Positions 12,950-20,615 of a stretch of DNA of 20,615 nucleotides are shown in pieces (the stretch's first letter is position 1; every line of letters starts with the position of its first letter). The notes beneath the pieces were generated by a model that saw only the letters and a program-made list of their open reading frames with translations, was not told the origin of the DNA and searched no databases. Both the position numbers and the translations under genes were made by a program. This DNA comes from a virus (Duplodnaviria > Heunggongvirae > Uroviricota > Caudoviricetes), in IMG/VR virus record IMGVR_UViG_2740892212_000021; one strand, given 5' to 3'.

Positions 12950-12953
12950 ACAT

Positions 12954-12977
12954 CGCCGCCTGCGGGCGGCTTTTTTA
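12954..12977 (+). terminator. Rho-independent terminator of the P-Q operon
   Basis: GC-rich hairpin GCCGCC-TGCG-GGCGGC followed by TTTTTT, 5 nt after the Q stop. Confidence 0.7.
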
Positions 12978-13118
12978 CACCCCGTCATCACGCCCTCACA
13001 CGCTCACCACAGCACAAAACACCCCGCAGACACACCAACGCCTCAACGGGCAGACTAAGCGCCTTCACGACGCGCTCAGACGCTGAAAAAATAAAATCAG
13101 CACCACCGCCAGCGCGCA

Positions 13119-13137
13119 GTGCTTTCCCCGCCTCGCC
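13119..13137. other. cos site (19-nt cohesive end core of P2-type phages)
   Basis: Plus strand reads GTGCTTTCCCCGCCTCGCC, the reverse complement of GGCGAGGCGGGGAAAGCAC, which I recall as the P2/P4 cohesive end; located just past Q as in the P2 map; coordinates hand-indexed (+/-1). Confidence 0.75.
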
Positions 13138-13291
13138 CGCCCGCTTCATGGGGCGATTTTGATGCAGTTGCATGAACATACCGAGAATGCGCCAGCACTG
13201 ACAACGCTCATAAGCAACAGGGGATGAAAACGCATGCAATTCGATGCAATAGCACATGCATGAATAGAAACGACTGTAATTAAGGGGAAAC

Positions 13292-13320
13292 AGTATAAAA
13301 ATCCGGCTAAAAATAGCCGA
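13292..13320 (-). terminator. Rho-independent terminator downstream of the 200-aa cargo ORF
   Basis: Hairpin CGGCTA-tttt-TAGCCG on the minus-strand transcript followed by a T-rich run (ATTTTTATAC), about 40 nt after the ORF stop. Confidence 0.55.
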
Positions 13321-13355
13321 CCGTTCACTAGAATCGACTATTTATTGCTTATTTT

Positions 13356-13958
13356 TCACCCCATTTTAACGAGGTGGCTCATTTTTATAGCTGTTACAGA
13401 GTCTTCATAATGAGGCACATCTACAAGAAGAAGTTCTTCATTCCCGGCAAGAGAAACAATGTGCTTTAACAGTAGAGTTTCAATTCTTGATAAATACTCT
13501 GGAACTTTTTTATGAAACCCCAGCGAGTTTTCCCTAACCCGATATGGGTTCCTTACGTGAATATGTTTTGAGCATTCATCATATAGCTTGATAAACTGTT
13601 TTTTCGTCAAAAAACCTCCCGTTAGTTTCGTCCAGCCCGTTTTGGTTACTCCTGATATTGGTACTGGATAAAAGTTAGGGTTTATCTTTTCCAACTCTTT
13701 AAATATATTCTTCGCCTTCCATACACCATCAATCTTCTTTGTAACCTTCTCGTATGCTTTTTCATGTGAAATTAGAGATGAAAATGCAATGAGCTCTAGT
13801 AGCTTCCTAAGCTGCAACGCCTCCATTTCAATTAACACTTGAAAATAAATGCCATCAATCCTTCCAGATGATAAAGCATGAAGTGTTTCAAGTCGCTTTT
13901 GACATTCAAACATTATCTTTAGATATTTTTGTCTTTTTTTCTCATTCATTAATAACAT
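13356..13958 (-). CDS. Hypothetical protein, 200 aa, low-GC cargo gene in the cos-A variable position; candidate anti-phage/exclusion function
   Basis: Intact 200-codon ORF; GC about 30-35% in hand-counted 60-nt lines versus about 55% in flanking phage genes; own terminator; occupies the position of tin/old in P2; no family recognised; Lys/Glu-rich, probably helical, no transmembrane segments. Confidence 0.7.
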   Translation of the reverse strand: MLLMNEKKRQKYLKIMFECQKRLETLHALSSGRIDGIYFQVLIEMEALQLRKLLELIAFSSLISHEKAYEKVTKKIDGVWKAKNIFKELEKINPNFYPVPISGVTKTGWTKLTGGFLTKKQFIKLYDECSKHIHVRNPYRVRENSLGFHKKVPEYLSRIETLLLKHIVSLAGNEELLLVDVPHYEDSVTAIKMSHLVKMG

Positions 13959-14173
13959 GATCTCATCATCATTCTAACGTCATGCAGAAAGCTATATTAG
14001 ACACGTCACCCGAATAAAGCTTCATTACCTAAAAACAAGACCATACCATCAAACATGAGGGGAGGCGTTGAGTTTTTTGTTTTCTCATTGGTTCCAATAC
14101 CACTAACGCCTCGCGATGCTCGTTGTTCAACCCCGCCAGCCCTGAAAACAAGTTTCAAGACTGACGGCGTTTT

Positions 14174-14380
14174 CTATAGTCTGCGTGGCGGTGGAGCAAC
14201 TCTGGACTGACGGATATAATTAAGCCGCCCGTAATTATCCCGGACTATTTCGGCACACCCGACCAGCTCGTCAGGCGTCAGATTTTCGTTGACCATAATC
14301 TGCTGTAGACGGTGAACAATAGCCATCAGCTTGATATTTTTAGTGTTATGTTGCGGTATCTCGCCCGGTATTCTGTGCAT
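14174..14380 (-). CDS. Small hypothetical protein (about 68 aa; 72 aa from the upstream ATG at 14392)
   Basis: ATG overlaps the stop of the upstream ORF (TAATG), suggesting translational coupling; no recognisable motif. Confidence 0.4.
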   Translation of the reverse strand: MHRIPGEIPQHNTKNIKLMAIVHRLQQIMVNENLTPDELVGCAEIVRDNYGRLNYIRQSRVAPPPRRL

Positions 14381-14835
14381 TATCCAAGCCACCCGTTTTG
14401 CTTTGCACGCTCAATCTGTTCATCTGAATAGTTCCATGCTCCATCCGTGGCAACCATTGCCCCGCCAGACATCCCCGTCTCTGGTGCATACATAACAGCA
14501 AGGCCGAGCTGATGCATAATTTCATGATTAATTCTGAATACCAGACCACGCTCACTAAGTTCTTTCCAGTTCACAATCTCATATGCGCCTGTATTAAGCA
14601 GCTCAATACTTAGCAAGACATAATCTTCCAGCCAGTCTGACAGGTCAGTAACATCTGTTATCCGGGCTTCAACCTTTCGCCCCGTATACACACCCTGCGC
14701 CCATTCATGCAAAATCAACGTGTCCCCGCGCTCATAATTACGGTCATTTTTCCGAAACTCTGCGCGTTTCTTTCCTTCCAGCACAAGGTCAAAATATTTT
14801 GCGTGCAGCTTTACCTCGTGAATTTTTGCCATCAT
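14380..14835 (-). CDS. DUF3850/ASCH-like protein with C-terminal HExxH-containing extension (orf91 position of P2), about 151 aa
   Basis: ATGATGA arrangement overlaps the A stop; N-terminal about 85 aa (KIHEVKLHAKYFDLVLEGKKRAEFRKNDRNYERGDTLILHEW) resembles DUF3850/ASCH-like proteins; C-terminal about 65 aa contains HEIMH. Confidence 0.7.
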   Translation of the reverse strand: MMAKIHEVKLHAKYFDLVLEGKKRAEFRKNDRNYERGDTLILHEWAQGVYTGRKVEARITDVTDLSDWLEDYVLLSIELLNTGAYEIVNWKELSERGLVFRINHEIMHQLGLAVMYAPETGMSGGAMVATDGAWNYSDEQIERAKQNGWLG

Positions 14836-17117
14836 GTCCACTCCATTACTGTTGAGAATCCCGGCCACTCATCAGCGACCGGATACGTGAATTTTTTCCC
14901 GTCATAATTTACGGTCGCGCCACGCACCAGCGCCTCAAGCTCCCATCGCTGCGGCCTGATACCGTTCTGAGCAAGGTCAACGCGGATACGGGTGATTTGC
15001 ATTCTTTCCGACCGGGTCAGTCTGGCCGATGGTGCAATTTCATGTGGTTTTAACGGGCTTCCGTTTCTTGGCTGACAATGTGGTGTTCTCAGTCCGTGTT
15101 TTAATGCACCTCTGAGCGCCCTCACAACCTCCGGGTCACTCCATTCGATAACACCGTCATCTACCAGATTAAGCACTGCTGCGGCGTGCTCAGAAGGTGT
15201 GGGAGCCGGTAACGAAGTATCACCACCGTTGAGCTTTCCACAGTTATTGACAGGACTCCGAGGCGCGGCGATGCCGCTTTTTAAAGTCAAAGGCTCAACG
15301 ACCGGAACTTTCGGCACGATGCGCCAGTCCGTCGTTCTGGTGATATGAATATGACGCGCGCCGAGATGCGGCGCGTAAATGCCGACCACTCTCTCGACTT
15401 CTTCCTCGTACTCGTTAACTTCATCCGACGGGCTACGGGCGACCCTGACAGTCTGACAATCGCGCGGGACATTTGCCCCGCCCTGCGCGCTGATATACAA
15501 CGCAAAATCGCCACTGTCTGCGGCGGCGCGTGCAGCCTCCACGCGTTCGTCAAATTCATCAGCAATGCTGACGCCGCGAGGCAATTTACGTAGCTCACGG
15601 TAAGCTCCCATTGTCGGCAGGCCAACCGTTTTAAATTGCGGGATGCGCCACGTTGACGCCCATGCGGTAACAGCCGCCGCAGTATCTTTCAGCGGTCTGC
15701 CGGTATCGTTATCGAGCTGACCATCCAGTGCATAGCCGTCGATATTTTTTGAAATGTATTTCGCGATATATCCCGCAGCACCGCCCCGGTTAAGGTGTTT
15801 TGCCTGAAAACGGTTTCGCGCGGCTCCTCTTTCGTCGCCATCCTCTTTGAGCGCATAGCGACGCATGATTTCGATAATCTGGTTACGCTGGCGTGGATTA
15901 CAAAAAAGCATCATATGCCAGTGCGGCGTTCCGTCGTGGTGTGGCTCGACGACACGCAAACCGTAGACCTGTAAATCATTATCCTTGAATGCCGTGCGCA
16001 TCAGGCTCCAGATACGGCAGAGATAACGCTGCGCATCCTTTGGATTAAATGCCTCATCATTCCAGCCGTGATTAAGCTGGACGGTTTTATTTTCGCCTTT
16101 TCCAACCTGACGTGTCGGGTGATACTTTGACGGCGCGGTAAGCGTGATAAACATCCCCACATCACCCTCTGAGGCGGCGTAACGCTCAATACCGGCAATG
16201 GTGTTCATCAGCTCCATCCGGCGAATTTCAGGATTAGAAATACTGCCCATCACCTTACTGATAAGGTCGATGCGCTCGCCGGTTTCCCTGTTTTCAAGGT
16301 CACACGATTTAAGAAATTCCAGATTTGCCTGGCGGCGCGCACGCACATCACGAATGGCATGTTTACTGGCATAAGGTGAACGGTCTTTATTGACCTCCCC
16401 GACAGCAATCAGTAACGCCTCATGCCAGCGCATACGCTGGCCTTTAAGCTGACTAATCCACCACTCATCGTTAAACAGGCGGGCAATGGCAGAATATGCC
16501 TGCCTCGTGGTCATCTGCCCTTTACGGTATTTTCTCCAGTAAAGCGGGGAAATATTGAAAGCACGTGCAGCGCCAGCAACATGACCATACAGGTGATCCT
16601 GCGCCTCATCCGTAAACAGCGATTCTTTTTCGCCATGCGCATCCACCCAGGCATCGCAGAGTTCCTCATACATCATGAAAAGCTGCGATGAGATTCGGGC
16701 GGCAAACTTTTTCAGCTCCTTGTCATTCATCCCCGGCAGGCGCGCATACTGGTCGCGCTCTGCCAGAAACAGCAACGACGCGTCGGTGTTCATTTCATGG
16801 CGCTGATTCACACGCTCAATGCGCGGCCATAAACGACGCTGAAAAGTGGATGTGAGGAAATAAAACCCGTGCACCGGGCTTTTATTGCGCCGGATGTAGT
16901 CATAGCGTGAAGTAAACAGCGAGCGCAAAAAGTAAGGCAGGCGGTTAATCGTGGATAAAACACCTTGCACCTGACGCATCTCGTCACGTGTAAGGGGTCT
17001 TTCCCGCCCGACGGCCTCGCGTGGCGCGTTCCATGCATAAGCACCGGTAAACGCCTTACCGGTGCCTGCGGCAAATGCTGACGGAGGGACAAAACGCCCG
17101 GAGGCTTTAACGGCCAT
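14832..17117 (-). CDS. A: Replication initiation protein A (rolling-circle initiator, P2 gpA-like), 761 aa
   Basis: Internal ATG at 17117 giving MAVKASGRFVPPSAFAAGTGKAF...; HxH-type Rep motif region (PHWHMMLF); length equals P2 A as recalled. Confidence 0.93.
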   Translation of the reverse strand: MAVKASGRFVPPSAFAAGTGKAFTGAYAWNAPREAVGRERPLTRDEMRQVQGVLSTINRLPYFLRSLFTSRYDYIRRNKSPVHGFYFLTSTFQRRLWPRIERVNQRHEMNTDASLLFLAERDQYARLPGMNDKELKKFAARISSQLFMMYEELCDAWVDAHGEKESLFTDEAQDHLYGHVAGAARAFNISPLYWRKYRKGQMTTRQAYSAIARLFNDEWWISQLKGQRMRWHEALLIAVGEVNKDRSPYASKHAIRDVRARRQANLEFLKSCDLENRETGERIDLISKVMGSISNPEIRRMELMNTIAGIERYAASEGDVGMFITLTAPSKYHPTRQVGKGENKTVQLNHGWNDEAFNPKDAQRYLCRIWSLMRTAFKDNDLQVYGLRVVEPHHDGTPHWHMMLFCNPRQRNQIIEIMRRYALKEDGDERGAARNRFQAKHLNRGGAAGYIAKYISKNIDGYALDGQLDNDTGRPLKDTAAAVTAWASTWRIPQFKTVGLPTMGAYRELRKLPRGVSIADEFDERVEAARAAADSGDFALYISAQGGANVPRDCQTVRVARSPSDEVNEYEEEVERVVGIYAPHLGARHIHITRTTDWRIVPKVPVVEPLTLKSGIAAPRSPVNNCGKLNGGDTSLPAPTPSEHAAAVLNLVDDGVIEWSDPEVVRALRGALKHGLRTPHCQPRNGSPLKPHEIAPSARLTRSERMQITRIRVDLAQNGIRPQRWELEALVRGATVNYDGKKFTYPVADEWPGFSTVMEWT

Positions 17118-18693: not shown

Positions 18694-18887
18694 TTCCAGA
18701 CCCTCCGGCTTTTCAGAAAGGTCAGAGCCTTTTTTAACGGACTCTGTTTTTTGGTGCGGATAATGATTCCCTTGCGACCCTTCCCGTGGGTGATGGTGAA
18801 GTCAATCGCCCTGGGGCTTTCGTTACGCAGTAACTGAGCAATACAACGCGGCTCATTCATAATCACAACCCCATCCACAAAAGCCAT
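18690..18887 (-). CDS. Hypothetical protein (P2 orf78-like position), 65 aa
   Basis: Small ORF between cox and B; overlaps B start by 4 nt and the cox 3' end. Confidence 0.45.
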   Translation of the reverse strand: MAFVDGVVIMNEPRCIAQLLRNESPRAIDFTITHGKGRKGIIIRTKKQSPLKKALTFLKSRRVWK

Positions 18888-19150
18888 GCATCACGCTGTT
18901 CAACCGGTCGGTTATAAAACGCCTCACGTACAGCGCGATTAAACTCAGGAATGAAAACCCATTTTTCACCGGCACGAGCCTTCGGTTTGCAAGGATCACG
19001 CAATTCAATAATTGGTAATTTATTTGCCTTCACCATTTCACTGACGGCTGTCTTTGGCTTCCCTAATAAATCAGCAAATTTATCCACATGAACCGCATCA
19101 AGCGGATACTGAATCACATAATTTTCAGCGTCCATATATGGTACCCTCAT
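18863..19150 (-). CDS. cox: Cox-like excisionase/early-promoter regulator, 95 aa (possibly 90 aa from the internal Met)
   Basis: First gene of the early operon, divergent from C; C-terminal region ...RDAWLLWMGL resembles P2 Cox (...WLMWLGL) as recalled. Confidence 0.8.
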   Translation of the reverse strand: MRVPYMDAENYVIQYPLDAVHVDKFADLLGKPKTAVSEMVKANKLPIIELRDPCKPKARAGEKWVFIPEFNRAVREAFYNRPVEQRDAWLLWMGL

Positions 19151-19271
19151 AGGATCCAGCCCTTTCTAAACCACTCAAAACCGTTTAGACGCTGGTTTAT
19201 TCTCAAATCAATGGAACCTATATAGGTTCCAGTTTTGAGGGAATTTAGTCCCTATATAGGCACCATGTCAA
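19151..19271. promoter_or_regulatory. Lysis/lysogeny switch region: divergent early and repressor promoters with operators
   Basis: 121-bp region between divergent cox and C; perfect 18-bp palindrome GGAACCTATATAGGTTCC (about 19213..19230) and a second CCTATATAGG copy (about 19251..19260). Confidence 0.7.
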
Positions 19272-19565
19272 ATGAAATTAAGCGAAAAGATTAAGGCCTT
19301 GCGTGAGGCTGAAGGGCTAAGCCAATCAAAATTCTGTGAAATCATAGAGTTACCGCTAAGCACACTTAAAAAATATGAAGGAGGAAACTTTGAACCCGGT
19401 GGCACAGCTTTGCTAAAAATCACTATGCATCCCACATTCCAAAAATATGCTCTATGGCTTATGACAGATAAAACCGCGCCGGACGCAGGACAAATCGCAC
19501 CGGCTCTCGCGCACATTGGGCCAGAGTCAACAGAGTCCAACCACTCCGCGAAAAGGATTGGCTAA
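19272..19565 (+). CDS. C: Immunity repressor C (P2 C-like), 97 aa
   Basis: C-terminal half (...TFQKYALWLMTDKTAPDAGQIAPALAHIGPE...) resembles P2 C as recalled; N-terminal half differs; directly upstream of int. Confidence 0.85.
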   Translation: MKLSEKIKALREAEGLSQSKFCEIIELPLSTLKKYEGGNFEPGGTALLKITMHPTFQKYALWLMTDKTAPDAGQIAPALAHIGPESTESNHSAKRIG

Positions 19566-19634
19566 CTCTATATAAAGATTACATTTTCACCATTTGCTAC
19601 CAAGATGGTGAATACAGCGCCGGAGGGCTTTCTT

Positions 19635-20615
19635 ATGGCAATTAAGAAGCTCGATGATGGTCGCTATGAAGTGGACATTAGACCTCGCGGTCGCGACGGA
19701 AAACGCATCCGCAGGAAATTCGAAAGAAAAGCTGAAGCACTAGCATTTGAGCGATACACAATCGCCAATGCCAGTCAGAAAGAATGGGGAGGCCAGCGAG
19801 CAGACCGCCGGACTTTGAGTGAGTTGCTGGACATCTGGTGGAAATATCACGGGCAAAACCACGAGCATGGAACAAAAGAGTTTAATCATCTACTCAAAAC
19901 CATCAGCGGCATAGGTGATATACCAGTGAGCAGGATGAGCAAAAGGGCTTTGATGGATTATCGTTCCATGCGACTACGTGATGGTATCAGTGCCGCAACG
20001 ATAAACCGTGACATGTACCGATTATCCGGCATGTTCACAAAATTAATTCAATTGGATGAATTTTCCGGGCAACACCCAATTCACGGACTGCCGCCACTGG
20101 CGGAGGCCAACCCTGAAATGACGTTCCTGGAAAAAGCAGAAATCGAAAAACTGTTAAATGTTTTGGCTGGTGATGACTTACTTGTCGCGCTTTTATGTCT
20201 GAGCACTGGAGGAAGATGGACGGAAGTTGCCACGCTAAAACCAGCACAGATTACAAATTGCAGGGTTACCTTCCTGAAAACCAAAAACGGTAAAAAGCGA
20301 ACCGTGCCGATTTCTGAGGAACTGGAGAAAAAAGTTAAAGAGGAGGCCAGCGCCAAATTATTCAAAGTTGATTATGAGAAATTTTGCGGGATTTTACGCA
20401 GAGTGAAACCTGATATACCACCCAATCAGGCAACCCACATCCTGCGGCATACATTCGCAAGCCATTTCATGATGAATGGGGGCAATATAATCGCACTGCA
20501 ACAGATTCTGGGACATGCGAGCATTCAGCAGACGATGGCCTATGCGCACCTTGCGCCTGACTATCTGCAAAATGCCGTCGCTCTGAATCCACTAAAAGGC
20601 GGAGTGACGTTATAA
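19635..20615 (+). CDS. int: Tyrosine integrase (P2 Int-like), 326 aa from ATG 19635
   Basis: MAIKKLDDGRYEVDIRPRGRDGKRIRRKF... matches the P2 Int N-terminus as recalled; catalytic-region motifs (ATHILRHTFASH, LGHASIQQTMAYAHLAP); GGAGGG ribosome-binding site upstream; stop codon is the last codon of the window. Confidence 0.92.
   Translation: MAIKKLDDGRYEVDIRPRGRDGKRIRRKFERKAEALAFERYTIANASQKEWGGQRADRRTLSELLDIWWKYHGQNHEHGTKEFNHLLKTISGIGDIPVSRMSKRALMDYRSMRLRDGISAATINRDMYRLSGMFTKLIQLDEFSGQHPIHGLPPLAEANPEMTFLEKAEIEKLLNVLAGDDLLVALLCLSTGGRWTEVATLKPAQITNCRVTFLKTKNGKKRTVPISEELEKKVKEEASAKLFKVDYEKFCGILRRVKPDIPPNQATHILRHTFASHFMMNGGNIIALQQILGHASIQQTMAYAHLAPDYLQNAVALNPLKGGVTL

Follow-up and report, generated by a model that had tools for sequence, protein, structure and literature searches.

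Two dyad-symmetric sites flank the −10 element of the predicted early promoter

The DNA stretch analysed here, a tailed-phage record of 20,615 nucleotides (nt; IMG/VR record IMGVR_UViG_2740892212_000021, referred to as the window), is a P2-like (Peduovirus) segment that is 96-98% identical to deposited phages over most of its length. We examined its immunity switch, centered on the interval 19151-19271, which is the intergenic region between the minus-strand cox gene and the plus-strand gene for the C immunity repressor. The layout is that of P2-type phages, with C as the first gene of a C-int operon that faces a cox-led early operon, and relatives are annotated likewise. The following features of the switch are referred to below.

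18863-19135, minus strand: cox, encoding the Cox repressor/excisionase (Pfam Phage_Cox, E = 1e-23), first gene of the Pe early operon
19201-19240: wider imperfect dyad, the outer arms of which (19201-19207 and 19234-19240) pair across a small internal loop
19212-19231: predicted distal operator, core at 19217-19226, at about +4 to +24 of the predicted Pe transcript
19242-19271, minus strand: predicted early promoter Pe, with a −35 element TTGACA (19271-19266), an 18-bp spacer and a −10 element TAAATT (19247-19242)
19251-19260: predicted proximal operator core, within a dyad at 19246-19265, in the spacer between the Pe −35 and −10 elements
19272-19565, plus strand: C immunity repressor, 97 residues plus stop (Pfam HTH_3, residues 7-50)

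Pe was located by a consensus scan, in which it gave 10 of 12 matches and was the sole strong sigma-70-like site in the region. It sits at the position homologous to the annotated Pe of phage WPhi, and in both phages the −35 element abuts the C start codon. Transcription from Pe would start near position 19235.

The original prediction, made from the sequence alone, had pointed to a perfect 18-bp palindrome in this intergenic region and to a second copy of its core about 34 bp away, and both are present. The palindrome, GGAACCTATATAGGTTCC, lies at 19213-19230; its perfect symmetry in fact extends by one more base on each side, yielding the 20-bp sequence TGGAACCTATATAGGTTCCA at 19212-19231. 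The 10-bp core, CCTATATAGG, is found at 19217-19226 and again at 19251-19260, with a centre-to-centre distance of 34 bp, and the two copies bracket the Pe −10 element; two repeated sequences at Pe are a trait of the operators in the P2 C family. The accompanying description of perfect palindromic operators applies to the distal site, in which all 20 positions are self-symmetric, but not to the proximal site (TAGTCCCTATATAGGCACCA, 19246-19265), an imperfect dyad with 16 of 20 self-symmetric positions. As CCTATATAGG is its own reverse complement, its copies are direct and inverted repeats at the same time and there is no formal clash with the "direct repeat" description of the operators in this phage family. 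The non-palindromic direct repeats described as a feature of the P2 family (PMC2995052) are not seen here, a difference that concerns the mode of binding and not homology.

Chance is a poor explanation for these sites. When up to one mismatch was allowed, the two copies were the only matches to CCTATATAGG in the window, while 0.09 matches were expected from shuffled sequences and none of 100 shuffles reached two; the expected number of perfect 20-bp palindromes in a window of such size is about 0.02. In the complete 31.2-kb genome KC618326, which has the same immunity type, the two 10-mer copies were again the only ones, even at up to two mismatches, and distant extra operators of the kind known from phage 186 were absent from this one complete genome of the class.

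The switch is of the L-413C immunity type

The switch is a known and common one rather than a new one. Its cox-C region is 100% identical in "Escherichia phage P2" from Escherichia coli O157:H43 T22 (KC618326), in P24B2 and in MET_P1_103_31, and 99.4% identical to that of Yersinia phage L-413C (AY251033; Peduovirus L413C), in which the genes follow the same order, cox / C / int. C itself is 100% identical to L-413C gpC, compared to 55.7% for WPhi C and 43.2% for P2 C. P2-type C repressors fall into at least seven immunity classes, within which C proteins are at least 95% identical (PMC3448106); L-413C has been used as a separate reference phage in this classification, and the core of its att site is common to L-413C and WPhi (PMC3448106). 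Under the class definition (C identity of 95% or more, with a C-cox spacer in common; PMC3448106), the window falls with L-413C: the C proteins are identical, and the spacers have the same length and differ at three positions, all of which are L-413C-specific substitutions (G19214T, A19243G and G19260T), the window carrying the apparent wild-type, repressible operator. Among 5,426 complete E. coli genomes, 420 contain the same 471 bp at an identity of at least 99%, in every case on the chromosome. The annotation that fits the window best is an L-413C-class C/Cox switch that is expected to be heteroimmune to P2 and WPhi.

C is a full-length homologue of P2 C with a diverged DNA-binding half

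C is a small, single-domain helix-turn-helix (HTH) protein, and in a phmmer search against the Protein Data Bank its residues 3-97 aligned to residues 5-99 of P2 C (PDB 2XCJ/2L49; E = 1.9e-21). Identity to P2 C is 43% overall, 33% over residues 1-52, which contain the HTH, and 56% over residues 53-97; the corresponding values for WPhi C are 56%, 46% and 67%. The asymmetry between the two halves of the protein, from which a P2-related but heteroimmune phage had been proposed, is therefore real, while the N-terminal half, which had been thought not to match, turns out to be homologous to that of P2 C but diverged. Repressors of the 186 CI or lambda CI type, which are two-domain proteins of about 190-240 residues with a C-terminal oligomerisation domain, were also considered as models and ruled out, as C comprises 97 residues and a single HTH.

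In P2 C, specificity is associated with residues Y31, S35, Y36 and R41, which are base-specific and poorly conserved (PMC2995052); in the present C protein they are replaced by L29, K33, K34 and N39. The operators differ as well. P2 shares with the window a homologous HTH repressor of 97-99 residues, a face-to-face switch with Cox and two repeats at Pe, but its repeats are 8-bp non-palindromic direct repeats, ATCTAAAC, placed 22 bp apart; direct repeats are also what the original prediction gave as the target of P2 C. The P2 half-site ATCTAAAC was not found in the Pe region of the window; only a TCTAAAC/GTTTAGA pair, at 19165/19183 in the cox-proximal part, comes near it. (TCTAAAC fits seven of the eight bases of the P2 C half-site, which is probably a coincidence.) The alignment between C and P2 C thus spans the whole protein, at 43% identity, but the P2 operator repeats are missing from Pe, and neither the repressor nor the sites are those of the P2 immunity class. 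Repressors of this family each recognise only the operators of their own class (PMC2995052). Because the specificity residues are replaced, the P2 repeats are absent at Pe and recognition is confined to own-class operators, heteroimmunity of the phage to P2 is well supported at the sequence level. The core of the original prediction holds: in this immunity switch the sites are palindromic, and the DNA-binding half of the repressor is diverged relative to that of P2.

The closest experimentally characterised relative is WPhi (immunity class III) rather than P2. As in the window, WPhi has two 10-bp repeats that are 34 bp apart from centre to centre and flank the Pe −10 element (PMC1904268), and its distal site also lies inside a wider inverted repeat. 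In contrast to CCTATATAGG, the WPhi repeat GTCACCAATA is non-palindromic and its two copies are direct, and the recognition helices differ, with IALGTVKNYESGH in WPhi and LPLSTLKKYEGGN here. Since both the recognition helix and the sites differ from theirs, the phage is expected to be heteroimmune to both P2 and WPhi. Phage P24E6b was considered as a representative of the P2 Hy dis class for these comparisons but rejected, its C protein being 51% identical to P2 C instead of the expected 63%, which places it in another class.

The two halves of C also differ in their distribution. The 3' half of the gene (19437-19570) matched 37 E. coli records in the 90-95% nucleotide identity band, and the examples sampled from these match there only; in prophages of other immunity classes, the N-terminal half of C and the operator region are without a match. 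This pattern suggests that immunity modules may be swapped by recombination inside the C gene, because prophages of other classes match only its 3' half.

Site sequences follow the recognition helix of C

To compare sites among relatives, we used 64 IMG/VR loci (labelled by L numbers below) with C proteins 59-100% identical to that of the window and inspected the region upstream of C. As read from the alignments, the sites of 14 related classes change together with the C recognition helix: classes with the helix S-T-(L/V)-x-K-Y-E have a CCTAnATAGG core between flanks that differ from class to class, KNYE classes (WPhi, P37 and SW3-like) have GT-N12-AC sites, and KKLE/KKIE classes have GGTTC...GAACC sites. 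The sites do not follow Cox in this manner. The Cox proteins of L060 and L066 are identical, yet the sites of the two loci are unrelated, while L045, which has an unrelated open reading frame (ORF) in the place of cox and a C protein 86% identical to that of the window, has sites of the same type as those described here. The distance between the two sites is 32-34 bp throughout the WPhi-related clade in this sample, compared to 22 bp in P2.

Of the 36 same-class IMG/VR loci, 35 keep both 10-mers, and the one that does not is a 31,834-bp contig, equal in size to phage R18C, with the two substitutions of R18C that are described below. A tally of eight half-sites, from this class and from the 86%-identical L045 class, gave the half-site consensus T-G/A-G-N-N-C-C-Y-A-T, in which T-10, G-8, C-5 and C-4 (numbered from the dyad centre) are invariant, although the cox-proximal intergenic parts of the two classes are quite different.

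Two lytic isolates of the class carry paired substitutions in the two sites

The phage collection searched contained nine distinct phages of this class, three of which have been described as lytic or clear-plaque. R18C and L-413C were compared with the window over 911 bp. The three phages are as follows.

R18C, described as "virulent" (PMC6823313): two differences, G19226A and C19252A, one in each 10-mer; C intact
L-413C, a lytic clear-plaque mutant of the temperate phage L-413 (PMC2893161, PMC3448106): five differences, with an identical C protein; changes in the switch are G19214T in the distal dyad, G19260T in the proximal 10-mer and A19243G in the Pe −10 element
HQ103, clear-plaque at 37 °C (PMC10321612): no change in either site; C disrupted by a 7-bp deletion

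The probability that the two substitutions of R18C would by chance fall one in each 10-mer is about 2e-4 (2 x (10/911)^2). The four operator substitutions of R18C and L-413C all fall on invariant half-site positions (−8, +5, −4 and +5). In P2, P2 Hy dis and WPhi, mutation of one half-site leaves repression intact, while mutation of both reduces (P2) or abolishes it (PMC1904268), and for P2 a clear reduction was likewise seen only when both repeats were mutated (PMC1904268, PMC2995052). One substitution in each site is therefore what the published mutagenesis predicts, and we infer that the substitutions in R18C are linked to its lytic phenotype. HQ103, which carries the operators of the window, is prevented from forming plaques when a full-length C homologue of this class is provided in trans (PMC10321612).

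Base-by-base comparison showed both sites and the C reading frame to be intact in vB_YpM_50, P2_AC1, FSLSP004 and 569R9, and the same holds for KC618326, P24B2 and MET_P1_103_31, which match the switch at 100%; 569R9 has three substitutions inside C (19349, 19355 and 19361). To see whether double operator hits mark lytic isolates in the WPhi class as well, vB_YpM_22 and STYP1 were inspected; in both, a single GTCACCAATA copy is altered, at its last base. The paired substitutions would provide a sequence-level account of how R18C and L-413C, the latter used in plague diagnostics, can be lytic despite an intact repressor gene, and they matter for diagnostic or therapeutic use, as phages of this kind would be expected to form plaques on lysogens of the immunity type they belong to.

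In the intergenic region, HQ103 departs from the window at one position only (C19190T), and its base there is shared by 9 of the 36 same-class IMG/VR loci (among them L008, which is HQ103, L011, L014, L044 and L077) and by FSL SP-004. The clear plaques of HQ103 have been attributed in part to a "mutation of promoter Pc" (PMC10321612); if C19190T is the mutation meant, it is a common natural polymorphism.

A model for operator recognition by C

Taken together, we consider it quite likely that in the L-413C-type switch two dyad-symmetric C sites bracket the Pe −10 element, probably with one C dimer on each. According to this model, Pe would be read leftward into cox, and sites conforming to the consensus TGGNNCCTATATAGGNNCCA would lie in its spacer (19246-19265) and just past its start (19212-19231). 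C, being a homologue of the symmetric P2 C dimer, would most likely bind as one dimer per site, with its two identical recognition helices reading the two halves of the palindrome. Both dimers together would shut off Pe, thereby maintaining lysogeny and superinfection immunity, and escape from repression would require damage to both sites. Dimerisation in solution, bending of DNA and a need for both sites in repression are traits of the P2 C family. The P2 C dimer is symmetric and similar to proteins that bind palindromes; it can be superimposed on one of these, P22 c2, with a similar helix spacing, although its authors proposed that only one helix per dimer reads the repeat (PMC2995052). The controller protein C.Esp1396I binds repeated palindromic sites cooperatively, with one dimer per site (PMC2995052), the sites being 15 bp apart, compared to 34 bp here. 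The binding modes of P22 c2 and C.Esp1396I may serve as functional analogies for the C protein of the window, but as analogies only.

A site of about 20 bp with dyad symmetry that is read by a symmetric dimer is the reading we favour, because of the half-site consensus, the variable relative orientation of the two sites and the symmetry of the P2 C dimer. In the alternative closest to the literature, C would read the 10-bp unit as a direct repeat, with one specific helix per dimer, and palindromy would be incidental. All seven coliphage immunity classes have been described as apparently recognising direct repeats (PMC2995052), and the geometry of 10-bp units at a distance of 34 bp is identical to that of WPhi (PMC1904268). 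When the two 20-mers of a class are matched to each other, the direct orientation also scores higher in WPhi (13 positions, compared to 10 for the inverted orientation) and in L060 (12 versus 8). The inverted orientation, however, scores higher in L045 (TGGAACCCATATAGG / CCTATATGGGTTCCA, 15 bp; 17 inverted versus 15 direct), L049 (15 versus 12), P37/L052 (13 versus 9), L055 (14 versus 8), L061 (12 versus 8) and L062 (14 versus 11). With six inverted classes, orientation is not conserved, which fits a symmetric reader. In addition, bases outside the 10-mer (T-10, G-8 and CCA at +8 to +10) are conserved between the class of the window and the L045 class, and one of the L-413C substitutions affects G-8, again outside the 10-mer. 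We therefore regard reading of direct repeats as unlikely for this class.

The distal site is embedded in a larger element. A wide dyad of 30-34 bp was seen in all 14 WPhi-clade classes examined (L001, L045-L069), centred 47.5-50.5 bp before the start of C. Its position is conserved, while the arm sequences are class-specific (AAAAGGT/ACCTTTT, CCCTCATTGG/CCAATGAGGG, TTTCATTG/CAATGAAA, TCAACTGGTTC/GAACCAGTTGA and others), and at the outer positions (11-17, counted from the centre) the two arms show complementary bases in 74 of 105 cases, compared to 25% expected. The right arm overlaps the predicted Pe start. A dyad of this width exceeds what one HTH dimer should need, and the element may form a stem-loop in the early mRNA, close to its 5' end, may give structure to the Pc leader or may act at the DNA level. 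In WPhi, phage DNA flanking the operator shifts expression from Pe-cat about 100-fold and changes the pattern in electrophoretic mobility shift assays, effects left unexplained (PMC1904263) that may be related to the wide dyad. A scan had flagged the palindrome, together with TTGATTTGAG on the Pe strand, as a terminator or attenuator; this assignment was rejected as a family feature, as the hairpins of other classes are without a U-tract.

These properties of the wide dyad raise the question of whether the palindrome exists mainly to form a hairpin, be it in the Pe mRNA (a stem-loop near its 5' end), in the Pc leader that precedes C or in the DNA (a cruciform), with the C operator merely lying inside it. 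Apart from the conservation and width of the dyad and the flanking-DNA effect in WPhi, such an origin would agree with the folding of a 47-nt segment (z of about −4 on either strand) and with the position of the predicted Pe start, 4 nt before the inner stem. It leaves unaccounted for the second 10-mer in the Pe spacer, the covariation of the sites with the recognition helix and the paired substitutions in lytic phages, none of which the wide dyad can explain. Moreover, G.T and A.C mismatches are about equally frequent in the dyads (14 versus 17), and this lack of strand bias gives no sign of selection on one RNA strand; other classes lack a conserved U-tract, the dyad segment has no match in Rfam, and the dyad extends upstream beyond the predicted Pe +1. 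We consider a hairpin as the main cause of the palindrome very improbable, while the wide dyad could contribute to the perfection of the distal palindrome. Still less probable, to our mind, is that the palindromes bind another protein, such as Cox, H-NS or IHF, and not C. In P2, Cox also down-regulates Pe. H-NS binds Pe and Pc fragments of HQ103, which has the same switch, and silences Pe at 21 °C (PMC10321612), and the core of the sites is AT-rich. The sites nonetheless do not track Cox, as seen for L060 and L066 above and for WPhi, the Cox protein of which is 82% identical to that of the window and the sites of which are unrelated; a host factor would not need class-specific sequences that covary with the phage repressor, and inspection of the sequence revealed no match to the IHF consensus at the site.

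Several points weigh against two dyad-symmetric C operators as the basis of the switch. By 2007, operators had been located for three classes only (P2, P2 Hy dis and WPhi; PMC1904268), and H-NS, too, binds Pe fragments of the present class (PMC10321612). C might read the central TATATA by an indirect mode or ignore it, and the perfect symmetry of the distal site may stem in part from the wider dyad that encloses it. Among the natural mutants, "virulent" is the description given to R18C by its authors, and G19214T of L-413C, which lies outside the repeated 10-mer, could be a passenger mutation. Finally, homology with the annotated WPhi Pc and a consensus scan gave no convincing hexamers for Pc in the window; Pc activity was undetectable in a reporter assay with HQ103 (PMC10321612), and the Pc of WPhi has been reported to be weak.

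What the present analysis may add to a known switch is modest: an operator model, an account of the lytic behaviour of R18C and L-413C, and indications of symmetric or inverted sites in much of the family. The 20-bp model, TGGNNCCTATATAGGNNCCA, would apply to an immunity class that about 8% of complete E. coli genomes carry. Dyad-symmetric 20-bp sites in this clade, as opposed to the textbook non-palindromic direct repeats, would be modestly new, and may already be in print. The comparative data suggest that the "direct repeat" paradigm is a poor fit for much of the P2 C family, which bears on how a symmetric dimer reads DNA. More tentatively, and with somewhat less than even confidence, we propose that the WPhi-related clade as a whole uses a symmetric unit of about 20 bp in either orientation, that the direct-repeat mode of P2 is derived and that the wide dyad is a separate regulatory element of the region in which the early and lysogenic units overlap. 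If this is true, the class described here would offer the cleanest natural substrate for a structure of a C-DNA complex, and the conserved 30-34-bp dyad could account for the 100-fold effect of flanking DNA on WPhi Pe.

Start codons, further motifs and neighbouring regions

The start codon of C differs in position from that of P2. An ATG at 19265, out of frame here, corresponds to the P2 C start codon (ATGTCAAA...), while the C proteins of the L-413C class and of WPhi-like classes begin at the following ATG (19272) and have 97 instead of 99 residues. The C start codon is preceded by a weak Shine-Dalgarno match only and abuts the Pe −35 element of the other strand. The start of cox is ambiguous in public annotation, with lengths of 273 nt (ATG at 19135, preceded by GAGGG; most relatives) or 288 nt (ATG at 19150, in frame).

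In the prophage-like contig L014 (IMGVR_UViG_2925903241_000001), which belongs to the same class, A19242G changes the Pe −10 element from TAAATT to TAAATC. This is likely a Pe-down mutation, and L014 might be a crippled prophage marked by it.

The cox-proximal part of the intergenic region contains a cluster of TAAAC(C/G)-type motifs in both orientations (19165-19201), with TCTAAAC at 19165-19171 and GTTTAGA at 19183-19189, and TAAACCA at 19167-19173 and TGGTTTA at 19193-19199. These motifs are candidate Cox binding sites, because the cox-proximal part is conserved among loci that share a Cox type.

Downstream of C in the lysogenic operon, the following gene reaches the end of the window.

19635-20615, plus strand: integrase (Pfam Int_N and Phage_integrase)

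Its start is also annotated in two ways, with lengths of 981 nt (start at 19635, most relatives) or 1011 nt (start at 19605, the longest ORF). Elsewhere in the window, a variable cargo region at 12950-14870, between the portal gene Q and the replication gene A, corresponds to the P2 "TO" hotspot, which carries cdt-V in the closest relative, KC618326. The cargo of the window includes a 200-residue ORF (13356-13958, minus strand) without a Pfam or PADLOC match and a 162-residue ASCH/DUF3850/DUF7415 protein (14380-14868, minus strand).

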